Origin: an uncultured Actinomycetes bacterium
Lineage (GTDB): Bacteria; Actinomycetota; Thermoleophilia; RBG-16-64-13
Direction: 5' to 3'
NCBI GenBank assembly: GCA_963713545.1
Contig: CAVQME010000001.1
Location: 24,540 to 88,539 of the forward strand
Length of the DNA stretch: 64,000 nucleotides
This document shows positions 8,908-50,382 of this stretch, in pieces. The stretch's first letter is position 1. Each line of letters begins with the position of its first letter. The position numbers and the translations under genes are program-made. The notes beneath the pieces are model-generated. The model was not told where the DNA came from and made no database searches. It saw only the letters and a list, made by a program, of their open reading frames with translations.

Positions 8908-9630
8908 TCAGAAGAACGGCAACCCCAGGCCCGACAGCCGCGCCGAAAGCCAGCTGAACTGCCCTCCGATCAGGAGAGCTCCGTAGATCACCAAGATCGC
9001 CCCACACACTATCTGGATGACCCGCAGATGTCTCCGTATCCGGGAGAACGCTCGAAGCGCCCGGCCCACGAAGAAGCCTGCCAGCAAGAACGGTATGCCT
9101 AGCCCCAGAGAATAGACGAACAGCAGCGCGGCCCCTCCCGCCGGGTCGCCACCGGACGCGGCCATGGTCAGTATCGCAGCCAGAACGGGGCCGACGCAGG
9201 GCGTCCACCCGAAGGCGAAGGCGATCCCCATGACGAAGGCTCCCGTGGGCCCCCTCGGTACCTTGCCGAGGAGAGGACGCACGTCTTTCTGCATGAAGCT
9301 GGGCGCCGTCAGACCGGCGATGATCAGACCCAGGACGACCAGGAGCGCGCCCGCGATGATCTGCAGCAGCCTCTGATTGGCCACGAGCACGCCCGCGAAC
9401 GAGAAACCGGCTCCCAGCAAGGTGAATACCACGGAGAAACCGAGCACGAAGGCAAGCGTGCTCAGGATGACGCGCCGGTCCCCCTCCCGCAGTTCCTCGA
9501 CACTCAGGCCGGAGACGAACGAGAGGTAGGCCGGAAGGAGGGGAAGGACGCAAGGGCTGAGGAAGCTGGCCGCCCCGCCCGCCAACGCCACGAGGAAGGC
9601 GGTCAAACCGAGATCAGTCGGTAAGGTCAT
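8908..9630 (-). CDS. ccdA: Cytochrome c biogenesis / thiol-disulfide electron transporter CcdA (DsbD family)
   Basis: 240-aa polytopic ORF with the N-terminal SPCVLPLLPAYLSF and a second TPCVGPVLAAIL motif, the two conserved Cys-containing half-sites. Confidence 0.9.
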   Translation of the reverse strand: MTLPTDLGLTAFLVALAGGAASFLSPCVLPLLPAYLSFVSGLSVEELREGDRRVILSTLAFVLGFSVVFTLLGAGFSFAGVLVANQRLLQIIAGALLVVLGLIIAGLTAPSFMQKDVRPLLGKVPRGPTGAFVMGIAFAFGWTPCVGPVLAAILTMAASGGDPAGGAALLFVYSLGLGIPFLLAGFFVGRALRAFSRIRRHLRVIQIVCGAILVIYGALLIGGQFSWLSARLSGLGLPFF

Positions 9631-10189
9631 CCACCAGGCTGGAAAGCTCGTCGGCAGTCATGCCGCCGACCACGGTCTTCGCCACCTCTCCCTCAGAATC
9701 GAGGACCACTATGGTGGGGATCGCCCGCACCCCATAGTCCGCAGCGACGTTGTCTTCATCGAGCATCACGGGAAACGTGTACCCGCCCTCGCTCATGAAC
9801 TCGCGCATGTCGTCCTCGCCGTCGCTCACCGCTAGGACCAACACTCCCGCTCTTTCCGCTTCTTCTCGATAGAACCTATCGAGTTCGGGCGCCTCCGCCT
9901 CGCAGGCCCCTCACCAGCTGGCCATGAAGGCCAGCACCAGGGGCTTGCCCCGGTATTGGCCGAGCGAGACCTCCGTCCCATCGAGCGTTACGCCGGAGAA
10001 ACCGGCGTCGGCTTGGGCAGTCGTCGCGGTCGCGCCGCCCGTCGAGGAGGTGGCGGGAGATCCGCAAGCCACGGAGAGGACCGCGATGAGAGCGACCAGG
10101 AACGCCGCCATCCCCGCGGTGATAGCCAGAGAACTGCGCCTGCCCCGCACCGGTCTCACAGCATCGGATCTCACAGCGTTGGATCTCAC
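9614..10189 (-). CDS. TlpA/ResA-like thiol:disulfide oxidoreductase lipoprotein with in-frame TGA at the active site (candidate selenoprotein, W-U-G-A-C)
   Basis: Track ORFs 9911-10189 and 9614-9844 are in the same frame; the 66-nt gap is 22 codons. The joined product reads ...GKPLVLAFMASW[TGA]GACEAEAPELDRFY...VRAIPTIVVLD.... This is the thioredoxin-fold FWASWCGPC context with TGA (9913-9911) replacing the first Cys. The N-terminal signal ends in VAC, a lipobox-like sequence. Confidence 0.7.
9865..9883 (-). other. Candidate bacterial SECIS-like hairpin downstream of the ResA-like UGA
   Basis: On the mRNA: CUCGAUAG-GUU-CUAUCGAG, a perfect 8-bp stem with a G/U apical loop. It starts 27 nt after the UGA. 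An alternative bulged GC helix lies immediately after the UGA. Confidence 0.4.
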
Positions 10190-10204: not shown

Positions 10205-11014
10205 TCACCGGGCCTTGCGCCCCGTCGAAGCGGTAGCGGCCACCGGAGGGACGCTCTCCTCGCCGCCCAATACCGGGCGAAGTCGTCCGTAGGTCTCGAA
10301 GTACCACATCCCGACGATGCCGATGACGAAAAGCGCCACGGCGATCCACTGCTGCTGGGTGAGCCCCAGGAAGACCGCCTCGTTGGTGCGCACGAACTCC
10401 ACCAGGAAGCGCTCGATCCCGGCGAGCATCAGATACGCGAAGATCAAGGGACCTTCGCGCTTGAAACGGGGACTGATGACCCACACGAGCAAGGCAAAGA
10501 TCACCAGTGAGGCCGCAATCTCGTAGAGCTGGGTCGGATGCACCTTCACGGTCGTAGGCGGGAGACCTTGGGGAAAGGACATTCCCCAAGGGAGATCGGT
10601 GGGCACGCCGTAATCGTCGCCCCTGAGAAAGCAGCCCATCCGGCCCACCGCGTAGCCTACGGCTACCGCCGGACCACCCGAGTCCATGACGGCCGCGAGC
10701 CGCTCTTTCGAAAGCAGCGTGACCACGACCACGGCCACGATGGCGCCGAAAAGCCCGCCGAACCAGACCAGGCCCCCTCCGCTGAGGAGGTTGCCCGGCC
10801 ATTCGTCGGGATGGAGGATCAAATAGTGGATCTTGGCCCCGAGCAGACCGCCCACCACACAGGCGATGAGGAGCCCGTAGATGAAATCGGGCTTGACGCC
10901 TCGCTGTTTGAACTGCCAATGCGCGACGAAACCGGCGGAGATGAACGCGAGAGCCATCATGACCCCGAAGGAGTTCATCGTGAACCCGCCGATATGAAAC
11001 AGCTCAGGGTACAT
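10205..11014 (-). CDS. lgt: Prolipoprotein diacylglyceryl transferase
   Basis: 269-aa ORF. The N-terminus MYPELFHIGGFTMNSFGVMMALAF and the polytopic profile are typical of Lgt. Confidence 0.95.
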   Translation of the reverse strand: MYPELFHIGGFTMNSFGVMMALAFISAGFVAHWQFKQRGVKPDFIYGLLIACVVGGLLGAKIHYLILHPDEWPGNLLSGGGLVWFGGLFGAIVAVVVVTLLSKERLAAVMDSGGPAVAVGYAVGRMGCFLRGDDYGVPTDLPWGMSFPQGLPPTTVKVHPTQLYEIAASLVIFALLVWVISPRFKREGPLIFAYLMLAGIERFLVEFVRTNEAVFLGLTQQQWIAVALFVIGIVGMWYFETYGRLRPVLGGEESVPPVAATASTGRKAR

Positions 11015-11133: not shown

Positions 11134-11367
11134 TCAGCTGAAGCCCGACCGAGGCGTGCAACTACTCTGAGGCACGCATCTGCCGGTGTCCACGCACGAC
11201 GGAGAAGAAGGTCCAAAGCCGAGCACACCGCCGAACCCGGTGAAACGCTGTTCCACTTCGCGGCCGCCACAATCAGGGCACACCTTAGCTTCCTCCTTGA
11301 GAAAGCCGAGGACGAACACCTCGAACTCGTTGCCGCACGAGCGGCACTTCAGATCATAGGAAGCCAT
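11134..11367 (-). CDS. FmdB-family zinc-ribbon protein
   Basis: MASYDLKCRSCGNEFEVFV...VCPDCGG is the CxxC...CxxC zinc-ribbon signature. I prefer the internal ATG at 11367 over the track start at 11436. Confidence 0.75.
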   Translation of the reverse strand: MASYDLKCRSCGNEFEVFVLGFLKEEAKVCPDCGGREVEQRFTGFGGVLGFGPSSPSCVDTGRCVPQSSCTPRSGFS

Positions 11368-11723
11368 CAGCCACCGTCTCCCTCGTCGCCGGCGAAGGGC
11401 GCAACGCCCATGTCGGCAAGCTGGTCTTCGACCCAATACATACTGATCGAGGCCGGAGTCTTGATCTCGTCTCCCACTAGTACCAGCGGGGCTCCGTGGC
11501 CTTCGGCCACCGCTCCGGCCAATACCGGGAAGTCGACGAGATCGGGATCCTCCACATCGACGTAGCGCAGGGGCCCGTCGTTCCCCATCCTGGCGCCCAG
11601 ATCCCGGTTCAGATAACCGACTATCTCCTCCAGAGATAGAGCAGGACGTCAGCCACCGCCTCTCCGCAGGGCATCCATGCGTCTCGAGCCCATCAACACC
11701 AGGTGGGCCGTGGAATCACTCAT
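11367..11723 (-). CDS. ArsD/YuzD-like thioredoxin-fold protein with in-frame TGA (candidate selenoprotein)
   Basis: The track ORF (11367-11588) holds only the C-terminal half (RYVDVEDP...APLVLVGDEIKTP...). The same frame continues upstream through TGA at 11651-11649 to ATG at 11723. It reads MSDSTAHLVLMGSRRMDALRRGGG[TGA]RPALSLEEIVGYLNRDLGARMGNDG. From memory of YuzD (CASC...) and ArsD (GVCG) sequences, the TGA sits where their active Cys lies. Total 118 codons. It starts 37 nt after the trxA stop. Confidence 0.5.
11621..11639 (-). other. Candidate bacterial SECIS-like hairpin downstream of the ArsD/YuzD-like UGA
   Basis: On the mRNA: CUAUCUC-UGGAG-GAGAUAG, a 7-bp perfect stem with a GG-containing loop. 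It starts 9 nt after the UGA, close to the spacing I recall for the E. coli fdhF SECIS. Confidence 0.4.
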
Positions 11724-11760: not shown

Positions 11761-12087
11761 CTAGGCCAGCCCGAACTCCTTCTCGTAGTCTTTCTGGCTG
11801 CGGGCGCCGATCAGCTGGGTCTTCAACTGCCCGCCGTCGAACAAGATGACCGTGGGTATGCTCATGATCCCGTAGCGCGCCGCCAGCTCTTGGTTGCTGT
11901 CGACGTTGACCTTGAGCACCGTCACCTTCTCGGGGTGATCGGAAGCCAGCTTCTCCAAGACCGGACCCACCATGCGGCAGGGACCGCACCAGGGCGCCCA
12001 GAAATCCACCACCACAGGCACGGTGGACGTAGATACGACATCGTCGAACTGCTTGACGTCCACTTCCTGCACGCTGCCATCACTCAT
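11761..12087 (-). CDS. trxA: Thioredoxin
   Basis: VVVDFWAPWCGPCRMVGPVLE is the canonical WCGPC site. I prefer ATG at 12087, preceded by AAGGAG, over the track start at 12198. Confidence 0.93.
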   Translation of the reverse strand: MSDGSVQEVDVKQFDDVVSTSTVPVVVDFWAPWCGPCRMVGPVLEKLASDHPEKVTVLKVNVDSNQELAARYGIMSIPTVILFDGGQLKTQLIGARSQKDYEKEFGLA

Positions 12088-31796: not shown

Positions 31797-31889
31797 GGCA
31801 GACTCCCGCGTCGGGCATCGGGGAGCGGAGCGTTCTCTAGCGGAAAGACGCCGGCGCCTCTAGAAGGCGAACGGGCTAATGTGGATAAC

Positions 31890-31978
31890 CGTTACTTCCC
31901 TTCGCTGGCATTACCCAGATCAGGTTCGCAGGGTCTGTGGCAGAGCCACACTCTCAGCTACAACGCTCCCCTAGCAAG
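31890..31978 (-). promoter_or_regulatory. TPP (THI-box) riboswitch
   Basis: The minus strand reads GGGGAGCGUUGUAGCUGAGAGUGUGGCUCUGCCACAGACCCUGCGAACCUGAUCUGGGUAAUGCCAGCGAAGGGAAG. It contains the conserved CUGAGA and ACCUGAUCUGG-UAAUGCCAGCG elements. It lies upstream of the thiN/ykoFED-like operon. Confidence 0.92.
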
Positions 31979-32471
31979 GTATATAGAATGCTCATGGATT
32001 ATAGCATCGTGGGACATGAACTGCCCCAAACGGCAACGCTGCGCGAGCGGCACTTGTGTATAATCAAGCCGTTTGTGCCGGTTGCCCGAGCACGGCGACG
32101 TCTCTTCGACGCATCCTTCCTCAGTAGGTGGTATAGACTGCCGAGAACACGAGCGTTGCGGTCAGACGGTGCGATCTCCACTCGCACCCGAGTACCTCTT
32201 CCGGCGCCGATCACAGTGAGCTCGCCCGAGCGTTTTGGGCTGAGCTGGATGGGGGGTTGGTGAACACGCAAACACTGGCCGTCGAACGGCCGGTCCCGGG
32301 GCTGAACAAGCCACCGGCGGTTTGTGCTGGTCACTTTTCCCTCCCCTGTCTTGCCGGACGTTCCACCGGCACCGTTCACGCAGAGACGCCAAGCGACGCA
32401 GGTCCGGTCAACGGGACCATCATCCAGCACACATCCGTCGAGCGGCGCCAAACGACTCCGGGGAAGGGGTG

Positions 32472-33086
32472 ATGGTGTCTACAACCACGGACGACCGCAA
32501 GGCAAGCCCTACCGAACACGGTCTCACCGAGATCCGCTGGCACGCCAGAGGCGGCCAAGGAGCGGTGACCGCAGCCAAGATGGTGGCCGAACTGGCCCTC
32601 GGCCAGGGCAAGCACTTCCAGGCCTTCCCCGAGTACGGGCCCGAGCGCTCGGGAGCCCCCATCGTCGCCTTCACGCGGGTGAGCGACGAGCCCATCCAGC
32701 TCTACTGCGGTGTCGAGCATCCGGGCATCGTGGTGGTGCTCGATCCGTCGTTGCTCGGCACGATAGACGTCACCAAGGGCGCCCCTGACGACGCGATCCT
32801 GCTTGTCAACAGCGAGATGACGCCGGCCGAGCTGCGGAGGCACTACAAGCTCACGGGCGGGCGTCTCTTCACCATCGAGGCCACCCGGATAGCCAACGAG
32901 ACGATCCGCCGGCCCATCCCGAACACGCCCATGGTCGGCGCTCTCACCCGGATAACCGGACTCTTTCCGATCGACAAGGTGGTCGAATTCCTGCGCGTTG
33001 ATTTCGGCAAGAAGTTCCCTCCCAAGGTGGTGGAGGGCAATATCTCCGCCATCACGCGAGCCTACGAGGAGGTCAAGGGCGAATGA
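32472..33086 (+). CDS. porG: 2-oxoacid (pyruvate):ferredoxin oxidoreductase, gamma subunit
   Basis: ATG at 32472 follows GGGGAAGGGG. EIRWHARGGQGAVTAAKMVAELA...FPEYGPERSGAPIVAFTR is the typical PorG pattern. Confidence 0.92.
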   Translation: MVSTTTDDRKASPTEHGLTEIRWHARGGQGAVTAAKMVAELALGQGKHFQAFPEYGPERSGAPIVAFTRVSDEPIQLYCGVEHPGIVVVLDPSLLGTIDVTKGAPDDAILLVNSEMTPAELRRHYKLTGGRLFTIEATRIANETIRRPIPNTPMVGALTRITGLFPIDKVVEFLRVDFGKKFPPKVVEGNISAITRAYEEVKGE

Positions 33087-33406
33087 GCCCCGCGAAGAAG
33101 CCCCAGTGGGATGTCAGCGACATCGACACTTGGGGGCCCGACAAGCACGAGCTCGGAGCGACCATCCCCGTGTCGGGGAACTCCGAGGAGGTCGAGACCG
33201 GCGGCTGGCGCTCGATGGTGCCGGTCATAGATTCCGAGGCCTGCAGCGGCTGCATGCTCTGCTACTTCTACTGCCCCGACGCCTCGATCATTATCGAGGA
33301 CGGTAAAGCAGTGGGTATCGACCTCAAGCACTGCAAGGGTTGTGGCATCTGCGCCAAGGAATGCCCGGCCGACGCGATAGTCATGAAGAACGACGAGAAG
33401 GAGTGA
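33083..33406 (+). CDS. porD: 2-oxoacid:ferredoxin oxidoreductase, delta subunit (2x[4Fe-4S])
   Basis: CSGCMLCYFYCP and CKGCGICAKECP motifs. ATGA overlap with porG. Confidence 0.92.
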   Translation: MSPAKKPQWDVSDIDTWGPDKHELGATIPVSGNSEEVETGGWRSMVPVIDSEACSGCMLCYFYCPDASIIIEDGKAVGIDLKHCKGCGICAKECPADAIVMKNDEKE

Positions 33407-33410
33407 CGAG

Positions 33411-34613
33411 GTGGGCGGAGACAGCACCGGCACGCTCGCCGTCACCGGCAACGAAGCGGTAGCGGAAGCGATGCGCCAGATCAACCCGGACGTGGTGTGC
33501 GCCTATCCCATCACTCCCCAGACCGAGGTCGTGCAGCTCTACGCGCAGATGGTGGCCGACGGTAAGGTGACCTCCGAGTTCGTCACGGTGGAGTCGGAGC
33601 ATTCGGCCATGAGCGCCGTGATCGGCTCCGAAGCCGCCGGCGCACGGACGATGACGGCCACCTCCTCGCAGGGCTTCGCCCTGATGTGGGAGCTCCTCTT
33701 CGTGGCCTCGAGCTACCGGCTGCCGATCGTGATGACCACGGTAAACCGTGCGCTCAGCGGGCCCATCAATATCCACTGCGACCACAGCGACACCATGGGG
33801 GGCCGGGACTCGGGCTGGATCCAGCTCTACGGCGAGGACCACCAGCAGGCCTACGACAATTGCATCCAGGCCATCCGTATTGCCGAGCATATGGACGTGC
33901 GCACGCCGGCGATGCACATGTACGACGGCTACGTCATCAGTGGCGCTATCGGCCCCCTGGTGATGTTGCCGGACGAGCAGGTCCAGGACTTCATCGGCCC
34001 GTTCCGATCTGTCAACCCACTCCTTGACGCCAAGCACCCCGTCACCGTAGGTCCTTTCGACGGTTTGCACGGCTGGTACTTCGAGCACAAGGTCTCGCAG
34101 AATCGAGCGATGGACCGAGCTCTGAAGGTGATCCAAGACGTCGCAGACGAGTACGCGGAGTTGAGCGGACGGCACTACAGCCTCCTCGATCCCTACCGCC
34201 TGGAAGACGCCGAGATAGCCATAGTCGTTGTCGGCTCCACGGCCGGGACCACACGCATGATCGTGGACAAGCTCCGCGCCAAGGGCGTCCGGGCCGGGAT
34301 GATACGGGTGCGCGTGTTCCGTCCGTTCCCGGACGCGGCCTACGCAAAGGCCCTCGAGCACGTGAAAGTGGTCGGCGTCATGGATCGGGCCGATTCCTTC
34401 GGCGCTCAGGGAGGCCCACTGTTTCTCGAGATCCGCGCGGCCTTGTACGACAACGAACCGCGTCCCCAGGTGCTGCCGTTCATCTACGGCCTCGGCGGGC
34501 GCGATATCTTCCCCGACAACATCGAGCACGCCTTCTCCGTCCTGGAGGAGGCGGCCCATAGCAGGCAGCGAGCGTCCACCGAGCGCCGCTATCTGAACCT
34601 GCGCGAAGACTGA
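33411..34613 (+). CDS. porA: 2-oxoacid:ferredoxin oxidoreductase, alpha subunit
   Basis: 400-aa ORF. TGNEAVAEAMRQINPDVVCAYPITPQTEVV is the PorA N-terminus. GTG start follows AAGGAG. Confidence 0.95.
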   Translation: MGGDSTGTLAVTGNEAVAEAMRQINPDVVCAYPITPQTEVVQLYAQMVADGKVTSEFVTVESEHSAMSAVIGSEAAGARTMTATSSQGFALMWELLFVASSYRLPIVMTTVNRALSGPINIHCDHSDTMGGRDSGWIQLYGEDHQQAYDNCIQAIRIAEHMDVRTPAMHMYDGYVISGAIGPLVMLPDEQVQDFIGPFRSVNPLLDAKHPVTVGPFDGLHGWYFEHKVSQNRAMDRALKVIQDVADEYAELSGRHYSLLDPYRLEDAEIAIVVVGSTAGTTRMIVDKLRAKGVRAGMIRVRVFRPFPDAAYAKALEHVKVVGVMDRADSFGAQGGPLFLEIRAALYDNEPRPQVLPFIYGLGGRDIFPDNIEHAFSVLEEAAHSRQRASTERRYLNLRED

Positions 34614-34623
34614 GGGAGCCGGC

Positions 34624-35436
34624 ATGGCACGCGACAACGGTCACAAAGATAAGGGATCGGCGCTGTACGAGGTCCTGCAAGGGATCGACTTCGAGCGCCG
34701 GCAATTGGTCGGCAAGAAAGCGGGCACCGGTCTCTTCGACCTGGCCCGGGATGAGAATGGCGGCTACCGCTGCTACGCCTGCACGCTCTGCGAACGGACC
34801 TGCCCGGTGGACTGCATCGAACTCGAATACTGCCCTGATTTCCCGGAAGAGCCGTTCGATCTCGAAGCCGCGCGAGCCGCGGCCCTGACCACCCTTCCCG
34901 GGGAGAGTTGCGGCGCGGCTTCGGCCTGCGTCATGGGCGAGACACCGGCCGGTTTCATACCCGAGATCGACATGAAGCACTTCGATCCGGTGATCGCCGG
35001 CATCCGCTCGGGATCGGGACTGGTGGAAGCCCTGCACGCCACCCAGGAAGCCTACGGCTATCTGCCCCGTGTGGCCCTCGAAGCCATCGCGGACGAGATG
35101 CACCTGCCCTTCTCGCGGGTCTACGGCGTCGCCAGCTTCTACAGCCAGTTCCGGCTCCGACCGGTGGGCAAGTACGTCATCGACGTCTGTATGGGCACCG
35201 CCTGCCACGTGGCCGGCGCCCCGCTGGTGGCGGAGGCGTTCAGCCAGGAGCTCGAGATCCCTCTGGGGGGGACTACTCCCGACGGTCTCTTCACCCTGCA
35301 GACGGTGAACTGCGTCGGTGCCTGTGCCCTCGCCCCGGTGGTGCGCATCGGGAACGACGAGACGTTCGGCCGTATGGGACCCAATGAGGCCAGGCGATTG
35401 GTACGCAGGTTGCGTAAAGCGGAGGTGCGGGCATGA
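34624..35436 (+). CDS. NuoE/HydC-type [2Fe-2S] subunit with N-terminal ferredoxin-like extension
   Basis: The C-terminal two thirds form the NuoE fold: LHATQEAYGYLP...DVCMGTACHVAG...NCVGACALAPVV. The ~110-aa N-terminal extension carries CYACTLCERTCP plus further Cys residues. Confidence 0.9.
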   Translation: MARDNGHKDKGSALYEVLQGIDFERRQLVGKKAGTGLFDLARDENGGYRCYACTLCERTCPVDCIELEYCPDFPEEPFDLEAARAAALTTLPGESCGAASACVMGETPAGFIPEIDMKHFDPVIAGIRSGSGLVEALHATQEAYGYLPRVALEAIADEMHLPFSRVYGVASFYSQFRLRPVGKYVIDVCMGTACHVAGAPLVAEAFSQELEIPLGGTTPDGLFTLQTVNCVGACALAPVVRIGNDETFGRMGPNEARRLVRRLRKAEVRA

Positions 35437-37421
35437 GCGCCGGTGGGACCGTGCGCGCCGGCGGCGCCTCGAACGGCGCCGGCCGCAAGGCCGCCCGCGC
35501 AGCGGCTGCGGCGGTGCAGGCCCGGGCCGATAGGATCGACGCGGCGCTGAAGGCCGCCGCCGATCCGAACGCCTACCTGGCCGAGGACGGCAACACGGAG
35601 ATAAGGGTCTGCGCCGGTACCGCCTGCCATGCTTCCGGCCGGGTGGCCCTGCGCAAGGCACTCGAGAAGGCGTTGGCCGAGCGCGGCCTCGGCGACAAGG
35701 TGACCATCGTCGAGACCGGCTGCCATGGGTTCTGCGAGCAGGGCCCCATCATCGTGCTTCGGCCACAGGGCATCTTCTACCCCCGTCTGGAGCCGAAAGA
35801 CGTGGAGGAGCTCATCGAGACGAGCGTGGTGGGAGACGGAGTGGTGGAACGGCTTCTCTACCAGCACCCGCGGTCGGGCGAACCCCTCGCGCTCGAGAAG
35901 GACATCCCGTTCTACTCTTTGCAGAGGCGTATCGTGCTGAGCCTCAACGGCAAGATCGACCCTTTCTCCCTGGACGACTACCTTGCCCATGGCGGCTACT
36001 CGGCGCTCGCCAAGGTGCTCAAACCCGCCGACCCGGTGGCGATCATCGACGAGATCGAGAGGAGCGGCCTGCGCGGCCGCGGGGGGGCCGGATTCCCGAC
36101 GGCTCGCAAATGGCGGAGCTGCCGCGCCAACCCCGGCGAGAAGCACTACATCATCTGCAACGCCGATGAGGGAGACCCCGGCGCCTTCATGGACCGCTCG
36201 GTGCTCGAAGGCAACCCTCACAGCGTGATAGAGGGAATGCTCATAGCCGCCTACGCGATCGGGTGCGACAACGGCCCGGTGGAAGGCTACGTGTACGTCC
36301 GTCACGAGTACCCCTTCGCTGTGGAGCGGCTTCGTTGGGCGCTGGAGCAGGCCCGTAACAGGAACCTACTCGGTGAGGACATCCTGGGTTCAGGCTTCTC
36401 CTTCGACATACGGATAAACCAGGGGGCGGGCGCTTTCGTCTGCGGCGAGTCCACGGCCCTCACCGCTTCCATCGAGGGGTTGCGGGGGATGCCGAGAGGT
36501 AAGCATATCCGCACCGTGTCCCACGGCCTCTGGAGCCAGCCTACCAACCTCAACAACGTCGAGACCTACGCCAACGTGCCCTGGATCATGATTCACGGCG
36601 CCGACGCGTTCGCTTCGCTGGGCACCGACACCAGCAAAGGAACCAAGATCTTCTCGCTCACGGGCAAGGTCGTCAACGGCGGTCTCATAGAGGTGCCGAT
36701 GGGCGCCACCTTGCGCGAGGTGATCTTCGATATCGGGGGCGGGATGCTGCCCGGCCGTCACTTCAAGGCCGTGCAACTGGGTGGACCGTCGGGGGGCTGT
36801 TTGCCCGCGTCTCTTCTCGACGAGCCCATCGATTTCGAGAGTCTGCTCGCGGCCGGCTCCATGATGGGTTCCGGCGGCATGGTGGTGGTCGACGACAGCA
36901 CGTGCATGGTCGACTTCGCCAAGTTCTTCCTGAAGTTCACGGCCGAGGAGAGCTGCGGGAAATGCGTGCCCTGCCGCGTCGGCGCCACCCGCATGCTCGA
37001 GATCCTGGAGCGCATCTCGGCCGGCCGCGCGACAGCGGCCGACGTGGATGCGCTCGAAATGTTGGCCGAGGACGTCGTGGAAGGCTCGCTCTGCGCCCTG
37101 GGCGGGAGCGCACCCAACCCGGTGCTGTCCACGCTCCGTTACTTCAGGGACGAGGTGATGGCCCACGCCGAGGAGCACCGTTGCCCGGCTAGGGTCTGCC
37201 GTCCTCTCATCCGCTACAAGATCGACAAAGACGCCTGCACCGGCTGCCGCGCCTGCCTCACCGCCTGCCCTACCGGCGCGGTGACCGGGGAGCGGAAAGA
37301 GGTCCACGTCATCGACCAAAAGCTCTGCATCAAGTGCGATGCCTGCCGGCAGGCGTGCCGGTTCGACGCGGTCCGCGTGGAGGCGGGCGCGCGTTCGCTG
37401 GCCGAAGGGAGGGTAAGGTGA
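35433..37421 (+). CDS. NuoF/HydB-type FMN- and NAD(H)-binding subunit with flanking FeS domains
   Basis: N-terminal thioredoxin-like [2Fe-2S] (RVCAGTACHASG...GCHGFCEQGP). NuoF core (GLRGRGGAGFPTARKW, CNADEGDPGAFMDR). ESCGKCVPCRVG cluster. C-terminal CTGCRACLTACP and CIKCDACRQAC. ATGA overlap with the upstream gene. Confidence 0.93.
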   Translation: MSAGGTVRAGGASNGAGRKAARAAAAAVQARADRIDAALKAAADPNAYLAEDGNTEIRVCAGTACHASGRVALRKALEKALAERGLGDKVTIVETGCHGFCEQGPIIVLRPQGIFYPRLEPKDVEELIETSVVGDGVVERLLYQHPRSGEPLALEKDIPFYSLQRRIVLSLNGKIDPFSLDDYLAHGGYSALAKVLKPADPVAIIDEIERSGLRGRGGAGFPTARKWRSCRANPGEKHYIICNADEGDPGAFMDRSVLEGNPHSVIEGMLIAAYAIGCDNGPVEGYVYVRHEYPFAVERLRWALEQARNRNLLGEDILGSGFSFDIRINQGAGAFVCGESTALTASIEGLRGMPRGKHIRTVSHGLWSQPTNLNNVETYANVPWIMIHGADAFASLGTDTSKGTKIFSLTGKVVNGGLIEVPMGATLREVIFDIGGGMLPGRHFKAVQLGGPSGGCLPASLLDEPIDFESLLAAGSMMGSGGMVVVDDSTCMVDFAKFFLKFTAEESCGKCVPCRVGATRMLEILERISAGRATAADVDALEMLAEDVVEGSLCALGGSAPNPVLSTLRYFRDEVMAHAEEHRCPARVCRPLIRYKIDKDACTGCRACLTACPTGAVTGERKEVHVIDQKLCIKCDACRQACRFDAVRVEAGARSLAEGRVR

Positions 37422-40400
37422 GCACACGAACCAAGACCGCCCTGAAGCTCACGATCGACGGTAGGGTGGTGAAAGCGCAGCAGGGCGAGACCGTTCTGGA
37501 CGTCGCCCGCCGGGAAGGCATCGACATACCGGCGCTGTGCCACATACCCGGCACCCCGGCCTGGGGCGCTTGTCGGCTGTGCCTGGTTGAAGTGGAGGGA
37601 CTCGACAAGCTCCAGGCCGCCTGCACCACCTGGGTGGAAGAAGACATGGTGGTGAAGACCGACACCCCGCGGGTGCGGGCGAGGCGGACGAGCTACCTCA
37701 AGATGTACCTCTCAGATCACAATGCCTATTGCGAGGCGCCCTGCACGCACGCCTGTCCCACCCACATCGACATTCCGGCGTATCTGGCTGCCCTGGCCGC
37801 CGGCGACGCCCCGGGAGCGGCCGCTCTGGTGCGCGAAGAACTTCCGTTCCCCGGCATCCTGGGACGGGTCTGCCCGCGCTATTGCGAGCCGGTCTGCAGA
37901 CGAGGCCAGATCGACGAACCGATCGCCATCTGCGCCCTTCATCGAGCCGCCGCCGACCATTCGCCGGGCGCGCGCCTCGCGTCGGGTGCGACCAGCGGCA
38001 AGCGGGTGGCCGTCATAGGCGCCGGTCCAGCCGGTCTCGCCGCCGCTTGGTTCCTCGTCGATCGCGGACATCGGGTCACCCTGTACGACATGAACGAGAA
38101 GCCCGGAGGAGCCCTCCGGTACACTATCCCCGAATTCCGCTTGCCGGAGAAGGTGCTCGACAAGGAGCTACAGCCCTTGTGGGATGCGGGCGTGCGCTTT
38201 GTGGGCGGGTCGAAGCTCGGCTATGAGGTCGATCCCGATGGATTGTTCGATGCCGGGTTCGACGCGGTCGTCATAAGCGTGGGCGGCATGGAGAGGCCCG
38301 CGCCCACCCTCCCCGGCGGCGAAGCCGCCCTCGATGGCCTCGAGCTGCTAAGAAGAGTCCGCGAAGGCCACCCCGTGCGCTTCACCGGCCAGACGGTGGT
38401 CGTAGGTGACGGGCCCACGGCTTTCGACGCCGCCCGCACCTCGTTGCGGCTAGGCGCCGCGGAGGTGGTGGTCATCGCCAAGCACGAAGAGAACGCCATC
38501 CCCGCCGGGAGACAGGATCTGGCCGCCGCTCTGGAAGAGGGCGTCAGGATCGAGTTCGGCGCGTCGGCCAAGCGCGTGAAGACAGCCGCCGGGAAGGTGA
38601 AGGGCGTCTCTTGCGCCCGTCTCGCTTGGGACGGGGATACGGCCCGGGAGATCGAAGATTCCGACTTCGAGGTGGCGGGAGCCACAGTGGTGCTGGCGGA
38701 TGACGAAGCACCGCCGGCCTCCGCCAAGGGGCGTCTGCAGGCCCATCCCTTCACCGGACGGACGTCTCGCGAGGGTGTCTTCGCAGCCGGCGACGCGGTC
38801 GCCGGGGCGGAGTCGGTGATCCACGCCGTGGCCGGCGGCAAACGCGCCGCCTTGGCCGTCGACGCCTGGTTACGCGGACACGACTTGGCGGCCCTGGAGG
38901 AACGACTGGAGGCGTTCAGCCGCTCGCCCTATCTGGACCAGCTCGAGGAGGCCTCCGAGATCGGCGACGTCGGCCGGCGCTTGACCGAAAGAAGCCCGGT
39001 CTGGCTCAAGATGGGCGCCACCGCGGAACCCGCGGCCCGCGCCTCCATGCCCAGGGCCGGCAAGGCCAAGCGCTTGTCCGGTGTGGAGGTGGAAGTCGAG
39101 AAGGGCTTCAGCCTTGCCACCGCTCGGGCCGAGGCCAAGCGCTGCCTGCAGTGCGTGTGTCCCACCCTTGGCGAATGCGATCTGCAACGGTTGGGAGTGC
39201 AGTACGAGATCACTGCCAACGAACTGGTCACCGAGGGCGGCAGGGTGCGGGTGGTCCAGCCCCAGCACGAGCATCCCTTCATCCGGCGCGACATGGACCG
39301 TTGCGTCGCTTGCGGGCGTTGCGTGCGGGTGTGCCGCGACGTGGCCGGTCCCGCCTGCTACGACTTCACCGGCCGAGGCTTCGCCATCAACGTCGACACC
39401 CCCTATGCCGAAGCCCTGCAGCTGGCCGACTGCATCTCCTGCGGTCGTTGCGTGTCCACCTGTCCTACCGGGGCACTCACCTTCAACGAGCGCCGGCTGA
39501 GTTCCTTCCGGGTCGACGAGAGCCGCTGCATCATGTGCCGGGAGTGCGTGGAGGTCTGCCCGGTGGATGCCATACAGGAGACCAACCACTTCGAGGACGC
39601 CCGCCGCAAGTGGCTCGAACTGGTGGCCAAGGGCAGCCAGCTTGCCGGCGGGCACCGCATGTGCGCCGGATGTGGCGCGCCCATCGTCGTCAGACAGGTC
39701 CTCATGGGCACCAGCGATCCGGTGGTGGTCAGCGCGGCCACGGGCTGTCTCGAGGTGAGTACCTCGATCTACCCGTACACTTCTTGGAAGGGTAGTTTCA
39801 TCCACACCGCTTTCGAGAACTCCGCGGCTACCCTGAGCGGGGTCGAGACCGCTTTCAAAGCGCTCAAGAAGAAGGGACTCATCGACGAGAACGTCAAGTT
39901 CATCGCCTTCGGCGGCGACGGCGGCACCTACGACATCGGGCTGCAGTCGCTCTCCGGCGCAATGGAACGCGGGCACCGGATGCTGTATGTCTGCTACGAC
40001 AACGGCGCCTACATGAACACCGGCTTCCAGCGCTCCGGGGCAACCCCGACATGTGCCTGGACGACCACCAGCCCGGTTGGCGAGGAGTCGGCCGGCAAGT
40101 TGCAGCAACGCAAGAACCTCACCGAGATAATGATCGCTCACGGTCTCGAGTATGTGGCCCAGGCCTCACCGCACGATCCGCGGGACTTGGTGCGCAAAGC
40201 GGCGAAGGCGCTGGCAGTAGACGGTCCCACCTTCCTCAACATCCTCGCTCCTTGCCCACGCGGGTGGCGCTCGGATGGGGCCGAGAGCATCGACCTGGCT
40301 CGGGAGGCCGTCAACACCTGCTACTGGCCGCTGTTCGAGTGCGTGGAAGGAGAGTACCGGCTCACCTACCGGCCCCACTACAAGCTGCCGCTCGTACCCT

Positions 40401-40576
40401 GGCTCAAGCGCCAGGGCCGCTTCGCTCACCTGTTCCAACCGGCCAACGAGTGGGCTCTTCGTCATCTCGAGGACTGGGTGGACGAGGAGTGGGAGAAGCT
40501 ATTGCGCAAGTGCCAAGAGCCTAGCGAGGCCGAATGGCAGGCGCATCTGCAGGCCAACGGTTGTCTCCTGCGCTGA
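37418..40576 (+). CDS. Multidomain fusion: NuoG-type [2Fe-2S], GltD/NfnB-like FAD-NAD(P)H oxidoreductase, NuoG-type [4Fe-4S] modules, extra ferredoxin motif, PorB (TPP-binding beta subunit of OFOR)
   Basis: GTG at 37418 overlaps the nuoF-like stop (GTGA). Domains by nucleotide position:
- 37439-37669: C-x10-C-x2-C-x13-C.
- 37697-38878: CEAPCTHACP, CPRYCEPVC, VAVIGAGPAGL, VVVGDGPTAFD, GVFAAGDA.
- 39131-39493: CLQCVCPTLGECDLQ, CVACGRCVRVC, CISCGRCVSTCP.
- 39506-39583: CIMCRECVEVCP.
- 39626-40513: HRMCAGCGAPI...GGDGGTYDIG...CYDNGAYMNTG...APCPRGW, the PorB pattern. Confidence 0.9.
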   Translation: MSTRTKTALKLTIDGRVVKAQQGETVLDVARREGIDIPALCHIPGTPAWGACRLCLVEVEGLDKLQAACTTWVEEDMVVKTDTPRVRARRTSYLKMYLSDHNAYCEAPCTHACPTHIDIPAYLAALAAGDAPGAAALVREELPFPGILGRVCPRYCEPVCRRGQIDEPIAICALHRAAADHSPGARLASGATSGKRVAVIGAGPAGLAAAWFLVDRGHRVTLYDMNEKPGGALRYTIPEFRLPEKVLDKELQPLWDAGVRFVGGSKLGYEVDPDGLFDAGFDAVVISVGGMERPAPTLPGGEAALDGLELLRRVREGHPVRFTGQTVVVGDGPTAFDAARTSLRLGAAEVVVIAKHEENAIPAGRQDLAAALEEGVRIEFGASAKRVKTAAGKVKGVSCARLAWDGDTAREIEDSDFEVAGATVVLADDEAPPASAKGRLQAHPFTGRTSREGVFAAGDAVAGAESVIHAVAGGKRAALAVDAWLRGHDLAALEERLEAFSRSPYLDQLEEASEIGDVGRRLTERSPVWLKMGATAEPAARASMPRAGKAKRLSGVEVEVEKGFSLATARAEAKRCLQCVCPTLGECDLQRLGVQYEITANELVTEGGRVRVVQPQHEHPFIRRDMDRCVACGRCVRVCRDVAGPACYDFTGRGFAINVDTPYAEALQLADCISCGRCVSTCPTGALTFNERRLSSFRVDESRCIMCRECVEVCPVDAIQETNHFEDARRKWLELVAKGSQLAGGHRMCAGCGAPIVVRQVLMGTSDPVVVSAATGCLEVSTSIYPYTSWKGSFIHTAFENSAATLSGVETAFKALKKKGLIDENVKFIAFGGDGGTYDIGLQSLSGAMERGHRMLYVCYDNGAYMNTGFQRSGATPTCAWTTTSPVGEESAGKLQQRKNLTEIMIAHGLEYVAQASPHDPRDLVRKAAKALAVDGPTFLNILAPCPRGWRSDGAESIDLAREAVNTCYWPLFECVEGEYRLTYRPHYKLPLVPWLKRQGRFAHLFQPANEWALRHLEDWVDEEWEKLLRKCQEPSEAEWQAHLQANGCLLR

Positions 40577-48757: not shown

Positions 48758-48899
48758 GGTCCGGTAGGTTAGCAGAAGGCCGGGAGGCCTGGCACGACCG
48801 ACTGGGGCGGCGGCGTTCGCCCGCCACCGCCCCAGTCTCACTGCATTTATGCAATCACTCGTCGTTTCAGTTAGAATCACCAAGAAAAGGAGGTCGGGC

Positions 48900-50382
<1,483 letters not shown>

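Follow-up and report, generated by a model that had tools for sequence, protein, structure and literature searches.

A probable selenoprotein family distantly related to YuzD in a conserved thioredoxin gene cluster of Actinomycetota

Introduction

Among the closest described systems to the gene considered here are the SelW-like CxxU selenoproteins (PMC13188914, Table 1), which are small, single-domain and thioredoxin-like, carry selenocysteine (Sec) where helix a1 begins, in the second-Cys position, and are encoded with a UGA followed by an in-frame bacterial selenocysteine insertion sequence (bSECIS). A second related system is YuzD (DUF1462, PF07315), an uncharacterised family of Bacillales. 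DUF1462 and the structure 1XG8 have been described as a "putative disulfide oxidoreductase" and are classified in SCOP as thioredoxin-like (c.47.1.17; PMC3091736). Here we describe a gene with an in-frame TGA on the minus strand (11723..11367) of a 64,000-nt stretch of DNA from an uncultured Thermoleophilia bacterium (contig CAVQME010000001.1). This stretch is called the window, and all coordinates refer to it. The gene is in all likelihood a genuine selenoprotein gene, a reading for which comparative evidence carries the case. The product is very probably a selenocysteine-containing redox protein and a distant relative of the uncharacterised YuzD family.

The family very probably belongs to the well-known class of thioredoxin-fold bacterial selenoproteins. 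It shares with the SelW-like CxxU proteins a small single-domain, probably thioredoxin-like architecture, the UGA followed by an in-frame bSECIS and the predicted place of Sec where helix a1 begins. It differs from them in matching neither PF10262 nor any of the NCBIfam models for selenoproteins, in its spacing, which is C-x4-U or involves no Cys at all, and in lacking close Cys orthologues. A 2026 inventory that covers 119 families of prokaryotic selenoproteins makes no mention of YuzD or DUF1462, no link of either to selenocysteine was found in the literature searched, and no NCBIfam model matches the window family. A preliminary description of this DNA, which had suspected a selenoprotein family not yet described, is supported in this respect.

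Results and discussion

Conservation of the reading frame across the TGA

Read directly, the frame runs from an ATG (11723-11721) located 37 nt after the trxA stop, through the in-frame TGA (11651-11649), to a terminal TGA (11369-11367). The preliminary description had given the ATG, the TGA, the stop, the hairpin and the 37-nt gap at these same positions, and all were correct. The candidate selenoprotein comprises 117 residues plus the stop, with the proposed Sec at codon 25 (U25). The product begins MSDSTAHLVLMGSRRMDALRRGGG-U-RPALSLEEIVGYL... and can also be written, to its C-terminal end, as MSDSTAHLVLMGSRRMDALRRGGG-U-RPALSLEEIVGYLNRDLGARMGNDG...GDGG. The residues spanning the proposed Sec are GGG-U-RPALSLEEIVGYLNR, and the whole protein contains no Cys. 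The mechanical list of open reading frames (ORFs) gives only a 73-aa ORF (11588..11367) that starts at an internal ATG.

A protein search with the product, U being replaced by C, against 5.8 billion proteins identified 23 homologues. All carry truncated annotations, with lengths of 64-91 aa, the sole exception being the 129-aa fusion P0023. An exhaustive HMMER search using a profile of the post-Sec region against 1.84 billion protein cluster representatives returned only 25 hits, namely short truncated proteins, the P0023 fusion and three long proteins of repetitive sequence. Over both searches the annotated lengths of the database homologues were 57-91 aa, and several begin just 3' of the TGA, such as "MSLEEIVGYLN..." and "MGYLNQDL...". 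In P0023 (ENA contig of 74.9 kb) the C-terminal YuzD-like part is fused to a garbled downstream zinc-ribbon gene, probably by a frameshift at the ATGA overlap in that assembly. No full-length Cys-form orthologue was present among the 1.84 billion representatives, and no TGC or TGT variant was found at the codon either.

The DNA of 41 related loci was taken from GTDB genomes and from JGI/ENA metagenomes, and 38 of these loci cover the site. Those with taxonomic labels belong to Thermoleophilia, Gaiellales or unclassified Actinomycetota metagenome-assembled genomes (MAGs). Codon 25 was TGA in 37 of the 38 loci and TGG in one (L003), while the terminal stop of the same gene varied between TGA, TAG and TAA. 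The homologous coding sequence was unbroken across the TGA in the 38 loci, down to 44% identity, and the frame was unshifted in every one of them. Translated in frame, all 38 display the segment x-V-G-S-R-x-x-D-A-x-R-x-G-G before codon 25 and x-P-x-L-S-L-E-E after it. Invariant residues thus flank the TGA on both sides (G12, S13, R14, G24, U25, P27 and LSLEE).

The start codons of the family also lie upstream of the TGA. In every locus a start codon was located 19-26 codons 5' of the TGA, mostly an ATG at -24; among 31 distinct sequences it was ATG in 26, TTG in four and GTG in one. Most lineages have a Shine-Dalgarno-like purine run (GGAGGTG, AAGGAG) 5-10 nt upstream of the start, and the window has only a weak one, GTGAGAAG, at 11738-11731. 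The column of the internal Met was non-ATG (TAC, CTC, ACC, TTC or CTG) in eight of the 31 distinct sequences, and codons 26-45, between the TGA and this Met, are conserved protein. The preliminary description had asked whether homologues might start at the internal Met; these sequences argue that they do not.

Selection on the protein and on the RNA

Selection was analysed by the Nei-Gojobori method on a codon alignment of the 31 distinct sequences, using the ratio of nonsynonymous (dN) to synonymous (dS) substitution. Upstream of the UGA, codons 2-24 had a dN/dS of 0.33 with a saturated dS of 1.27. Downstream of it the ratio was 0.19-0.21, with 0.19 for codons 26-45 and 0.21 (dS 1.68) for codons 41-105. 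The invariant residues G12, S13 and R14 are each encoded by three to five synonymous codons, a sign that the protein sequence before the TGA is itself under selection. The segment 5' of the TGA is therefore coding in the relatives, a check that the preliminary description had called for.

Codons 29-35, which contain a SECIS-like hairpin, had a dN/dS of 0.18 and a dS of 0.31. Synonymous change in these codons is suppressed four- to five-fold compared with a dS of 1.3-1.7 elsewhere. The codons TCT (Ser30), CTG (Leu31) and GAG (Glu33) were invariant in 31 of 31 sequences. Some of the hairpin codons are rare in this genome, CTA accounting for 2.4% of Leu, TCT for 7.3% of Ser and ATA for 14.5% of Ile. 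Purifying selection acts on the N-terminal peptide, and the hairpin is conserved as a nucleotide sequence.

A hairpin within the bSECIS consensus

The hairpin starts 9 nt past the UGA and consists of the arms CUAUCUC (11639-11633) and GAGAUAG (11627-11621) enclosing the loop UGGAG (11632-11628). In the bSECIS model of a 2026 review of the prokaryotic selenoproteome the apical loop has 3-9 nt with a G in its first two positions, the upper stem 4-16 bp, the distance from UGA to loop is 16-37 nt and the minimum free energy (MFE) is -7.5 kcal/mol or lower (PMC13188914). The window hairpin has a loop of 5 nt, an upper stem of 7 bp (8 with a U.G closing pair), a UGA-to-loop distance of 16 nt, which is the minimum of the permitted range, and an MFE of -8.3 kcal/mol. 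It stays within the consensus on all four counts, and in its loop, which follows the pattern N1-G-G-N-N2, the bases N1 and N2 can pair.

Across 29 distinct 63-nt segments of the family, 99.5% of the stem cells were paired and every variant was pair-compatible. One pair varied between A-U (16 sequences), G-U (eight) and G-C (five), coupling a synonymous Leu change (CTA>CTG) with a non-synonymous change of Ile to Thr (ATA>ACA). The slid-partner control was clean, with 30-69% of cells paired. A longer lower stem including the UGA was predicted for the window sequence alone and was dropped, being unsupported by the RNAalifold alignment. Pairing, suppressed dS and the fit to the bSECIS consensus agree with the SECIS hairpin that had been proposed just 3' of the UGA.

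The hairpin had also been likened to the SECIS of Escherichia coli fdhF. Like fdhF-type SECIS elements and the bSECIS consensus it is a stem-loop immediately 3' of the UGA and inside the ORF, and it has an apical-loop G-G at nucleotides 21-22, counted from the U of UGA. The E. coli fdhF SECIS has G23-U24. The window stem differs in being short and A/U-rich (7-8 bp, -8.3 kcal/mol) and in having no conserved lower stem. The comparison amounts to an analogy of spacing only.

Relationship to YuzD

No PF07315 match was found at E ≤ 10 (gathering threshold 25 bits) for the window protein or for any of the 27 Actinomycetota members. The window protein (U>C) and 26 relatives had no match in Pfam, NCBIfam or PDB sequences; matches to KRas in the PDB were rejected as chance, arising from a "VLVGN/D" motif. 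The link to YuzD comes from an intermediate sequence. One of the HMMER hits (P0046, E 3.9e-4) lies on a contig of low guanine-plus-cytosine (low-GC) content, and its Pfam annotation as DUF1462 (YuzD) was confirmed with 34.9 bits against the cut-off of 25. The locus on that contig (L042) and a second one (L043) have the same architecture as the window family. A Shine-Dalgarno sequence and an ATG or GTG start are followed by V-I-G-S-R-F-F-S-K-C-F-S-G-G-TGA-A-P-M-P-S-P-E-E-I-T-N-W-L, and the hairpin core is AUCUC-CGGAG-GAGAU, as in the window family.

The full-length L042 product (U>C) scored 39.6 bits on PF07315, above the same cut-off, and it matches Staphylococcus aureus SA0798 (PDB 1XG8). In this match the Sec of L042 falls on the second Cys of C-A-S-C, which is Cys18 of YuzD. 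Aligned by hhalign with the 27-sequence family profile, L042 had a probability of 99.3% and an E of 5e-20 over 102 columns, including the N-terminal G-S-R...G-G-U. Aligned with 18 Staphylococcaceae YuzD sequences, it had a probability of 94.1% and an E of 1.3e-7. Homologues with a Cys aligned to the UGA were found at superfamily distance only, through L042 to Cys18 of YuzD. These L042 matches lend indirect support to the first proposal, a YuzD-like thioredoxin fold in which Sec takes the place of the active Cys. Homology to YuzD through the intermediate sequence appears real but indirect, and we conclude that the window gene is likely to represent a Sec-containing sister family of YuzD, outside PF07315 by the Pfam threshold.

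L042 (2278-2615) and L043 (4930-5267) come from the Logan assemblies SRR27457109 and SRR28285714 of a low-GC bacterium and encode C-x4-U. In both, the gene is located downstream of trmB-like and radical S-adenosylmethionine (SAM)/DUF3463 genes, without trxA. Since these loci belong to a low-GC bacterium, the family spans at least two very different lineages.

The window family resembles YuzD in its length of about 105-118 aa and in the predicted order b1, redox motif, a1, b2, a2, b3, b4, a3. In both, a G follows b1 and the C/U site has a Pro close behind it. Helix a1 contains an aromatic-Leu pair, strand b2 the motif Y-[IV]-D, and P-L stands before b3, followed by D-E. They differ in the motif itself, since C-A-S-C is replaced by (C/W/L/F)-x4-U, in a loop that is five residues longer and in the invariant G-S-R. 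They also differ in host, Bacillales for YuzD and Thermoleophilia/Gaiellales-type Actinomycetota for the Sec family, and in the context of the window gene, which is a trxA...ccdA cluster.

Residue 19, which corresponds to the first Cys of YuzD, is W, L, C, F or M across the family. In the window protein it is Leu, so that the invariant C-A-S-C (CxxC) before helix a1 is absent and x-x4-U stands in its place. Seven of the 31 distinct sequences from Actinomycetota have C-x4-U, as do the two low-GC members. The earlier proposal of a single-Sec site therefore holds for the window protein, which is free of Cys, but does not extend to the whole family.

A likeness to the arsenic metallochaperone ArsD had been suggested together with that to YuzD. 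ArsD belongs to the thioredoxin-like clan; it and the window protein are both small and without a canonical CxxC, and the window protein probably has a thioredoxin fold as well. ArsD was rejected as a relative: the Pfam, NCBIfam and PDB searches gave no ArsD signal at E ≤ 10, a Cys12-Cys13-Cys18-type triad is absent and there are no ars genes nearby.

Gene cluster and selenocysteine decoding

The coordinates of the gene and its neighbours are given in Table 1. The order UPF0182 (-), metallo-β-lactamase (MBL)-fold (-), trxA, the Sec-YuzD-like gene, FmdB, lgt, the ResA-like gene, ccdA ... rpsF-ssb was the same in every Actinomycetota locus of sufficient length.

Table 1. Features of the candidate selenoprotein gene and its neighbourhood (window coordinates)
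Feature	Position	Strand	Basis or remark
Full coding sequence, YuzD-like candidate selenoprotein	11367..11723	-	Direct reading; full length including 24 N-terminal codons matched by tblastn in 38 related loci
In-frame TGA, proposed Sec codon U25	11649..11651	-	TGA in 37/38 related loci and two low-GC relatives
SECIS-like hairpin CUAUCUC-UGGAG-GAGAUAG	11621..11639	-	Within codons 29-35 (L-S-L-E-E-I-V)
Proposed true start ATG	11721..11723	-	Start codon present upstream of UGA in all loci
Internal ATG (Met46), gene callers' start for the 73-aa product, not the real start	11586..11588	-	Non-ATG in 8/31
trxA (thioredoxin, WCGPC)	11761..12087	-	ORF and motif; immediately upstream
FmdB-family zinc-ribbon gene (CxxC...CxxC)	11134..11367	-	PF09723 4e-12; TIGR02605 2e-10
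lgt	10205..11014	-	Neighbour of ResA-like gene
ResA/TlpA-like lipoprotein gene (lipobox LSVAC)	9614..10111	-	Own in-frame TGA 9913-9911, W-U-G-A-C
ccdA	8908..9630	-	Neighbour of ResA-like gene

The position of trxA and its WCGPC motif were kept in every Actinomycetota locus extending upstream. No terminator-like site was found between trxA and the selenoprotein gene, and the two probably share an operon. The start of the FmdB gene overlaps the stop of the selenoprotein gene (ATGA), and an FmdB gene follows the YuzD-like gene in every Actinomycetota locus long enough. FmdB-family proteins are listed elsewhere as a UxxU selenoprotein family (PMC13188914); the FmdB gene of the window is the Cys form.

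The ResA-like gene sits between lgt and ccdA in conserved synteny. Its C-terminal part matches the ResA model at 6e-15, and U replaces the first Cys of the canonical CxxC. The TGA was kept in at least 16 related loci, with a conserved W-U-x-x-C. UxxC thiol:disulfide proteins are an already listed selenoprotein type, and the ResA-like gene would be a second selenoprotein gene of the cluster, of this described type. A hairpin CUCGAUAG-GUU-CUAUCGAG starts 27 nt after its UGA. The conservation of W-U-x-x-C is strong but indirect evidence that these organisms decode Sec. TGA is the ordinary stop for eight of 23 confidently identified window genes, which indicates a standard genetic code without genome-wide reassignment.

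Weighing of the selenocysteine interpretation

The proposal of a UGA-encoded Sec finds its support in the TGA of 37 of 38 loci, the coding sequence on both sides of it, the hairpin and the Cys alignment. Several observations weigh against it or against parts of it. Folded as a single sequence, the hairpin is unexceptional compared with shuffles (z -2.1, about -1.1 for longer segments), so the case rests on comparative evidence. Covariation is limited to one pair, and the shuffle control (6-8 of 500) is reachable by related sequences without structure. The window protein is without a direct Pfam or PDB match. Compared directly with YuzD, the Actinomycetota profile gave a weak alignment (E 0.22), which was still weak when L042 was added as a bridge (E 0.0034, probability 9.5%). 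Both direct alignments are collinear, and the Sec column falls on the same YuzD Cys. A model of the 93 post-Sec residues, which excludes strand b1, was of low confidence, with a predicted local distance difference test (pLDDT) score of 61; at this score the order of its elements (a1-b2-a2-b3-b4-a3) is as expected of a thioredoxin fold minus b1. Foldseek found no hit to the model at E ≤ 0.001, the weak ones being mostly Trx, Grx or DsbA.

The decoding genes and L003 belong to the same side. None of selA, selB, selD and tRNA-Sec was found within the 64-kb window or the fetched loci. ARAGORN, run on the window and on 24 loci, detected no tRNA of any kind. No SelA, SelB or SelD emerged when about 30 ORFs of the window were scanned against Pfam, and tblastn with E. 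coli SelA and SelD gave no match in the window or the loci. L003 is the sole relative that departs from TGA. Finally, the redox role is put forward as a hypothesis because YuzD itself is uncharacterised. It is conservation, not folding energy, that lifts the feature far beyond chance.

Another explanation of the TGA is that it is recoded by a near-cognate tRNA (Trp or Cys), the hairpin stimulating read-through, so that a 24-aa peptide and the full-length protein would be made as a mixture. The TGG (Trp) codon of L003 and the missing Sec machinery in the window and fetched loci are in line with this. However, the site aligns with the catalytic-motif Cys of YuzD, both the loop sequence and the spacing of the hairpin agree with the SelB-type bSECIS consensus, and the adjacent ResA-like gene has U for the first Cys of its CxxC. 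The L003 copy (6001-6354 on contig CAWDXC010000011.1 of MAG MFD05942.bin.1.358) differs from every other relative at five positions. Three of them are invariant elsewhere (P27 to A, Y54 to C and P79 to R) and two nearly so (P66 to R and K88 to E). The TGA of the ResA-like gene is retained in L003. The pairwise dN/dS of the copy, 0.15-0.21, showed no elevation indicative of decay, and only the unique changes at invariant sites suggest an altered function. The copy has been recently inactivated or repurposed, or else these are consensus errors of a long-read assembly. With its changes at P27, Y54 and P79 the Trp copy looks altered or decaying, not like a tolerated equivalent, and we consider read-through by a near-cognate tRNA very improbable.

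Still less probable is an arrangement of two cistrons, in which a conserved 24-codon ORF would end at the TGA and the downstream gene would be translated by re-initiation, with the hairpin as a coupling or regulatory element. Gene callers universally call the downstream ORF (73-91 aa), and TGA functions as a stop elsewhere in the genome. Against this, there is no conserved start after the TGA, the internal Met codon being missing in eight of 31 sequences, and conservation continues through codons 26-45 without a change of frame, at a dN/dS of 0.19. The homology to YuzD is collinear from strand b1 through the Cys motif into a1, across the TGA, and the frame across the TGA is never shifted in the 38 loci.

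A pseudogene or assembly error, the TGA being a nonsense mutation or sequencing artefact in a Cys gene, would be compatible with the view from a single window, in which guaB also looks frameshifted, but it is effectively refuted by conservation in about 40 independent contigs, given the TGA in 37 independent assemblies or contigs from different studies and technologies and in two low-GC contigs, the purifying selection on both sides and the lack of a TGC or TGT variant anywhere.

Other features of the window

The guaB gene (IMP dehydrogenase, 48849-50382, +) is split over two overlapping frames. The ORF 48849..50177 covers PF00478 positions 1-144 and the CBS domains, and the ORF 49621..50382 covers positions 142-345, which points to a frameshift or an assembly error. 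A thiamine pyrophosphate (TPP) riboswitch (Rfam RF00059, 70.6 bits) is located at 31880-31982 (-), upstream of a minus-strand ORF, and was the only hit in the Rfam scan of the window. The region 32322-40576 (+) encodes 2-oxoacid:ferredoxin oxidoreductase subunits (POR, POR_N/PFOR_II), a NuoE-like 2Fe-2S protein and a NuoF-like protein. The same cluster encodes a 1080-aa fusion of Fer2_4, GltD-like Pyr_redox_2, Fer4 and TPP_enzyme_C, an unusual domain combination.

Proposed mechanism and significance

With UGA at codon 25 read as selenocysteine, insertion would be SelB-dependent: a SelB-type elongation factor would bind CUAUCUC-UGGAG-GAGAUAG and deliver Sec-tRNA(Sec) to the ribosome. The protein would be a minimal thioredoxin-fold domain (b1-loop-U-a1-b2-a2-b3-b4-a3). 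Its Sec would occupy the N-terminal end of helix a1, the place taken in YuzD by the second Cys of C-A-S-C. The protein is predicted to be cytoplasmic, because it lacks a signal peptide and its strand b1 already begins at residue 7. Its role is probably that of a selenol-based oxidoreductase in the thioredoxin-dependent thiol-disulfide pathway (TrxA, CcdA/ResA) encoded by the cluster. Since the window protein has no Cys, it would follow a one-selenol route, forming with the substrate a mixed selenenylsulfide that an external thiol, for example that of TrxA, then resolves. The C-x4-U relatives could form an internal selenenylsulfide instead.

A more far-reaching possibility, which we offer tentatively and regard as rather doubtful, is that the family represents an obligate-Sec branch of the YuzD superfamily for which present-day sequence collections contain no Cys-form orthologue at all. 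The partner Cys would have been lost in most lineages, so that a lone selenol would be the sole redox-active residue of a Cys-free protein. Together with TrxA and the FmdB zinc-ribbon protein, to which it is translationally coupled, this protein would form a dedicated cytoplasmic module feeding CcdA/ResA(Sec). If true, the obligate-Sec module would be the first functional handle on the uncharacterised YuzD/DUF1462.

Nearly all selenoproteins have Cys-form homologues (PMC13188914). The window family is unusual in that no close Cys forms were found, and the window protein, having no resolving Cys, is well suited to the question of why Sec has been kept. The gene adds a family missing from the May 2026 inventory and is mis-annotated everywhere as a 73-aa hypothetical protein. 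For Bacillales, the alignment flags Cys18 of YuzD as a functionally critical residue. For Thermoleophilia/Gaiellales-type bacteria, which are abundant in soils, the finding suggests that they invest selenium in a conserved trxA-ccdA thiol-redox cluster, together with its Sec-containing ResA-like gene.

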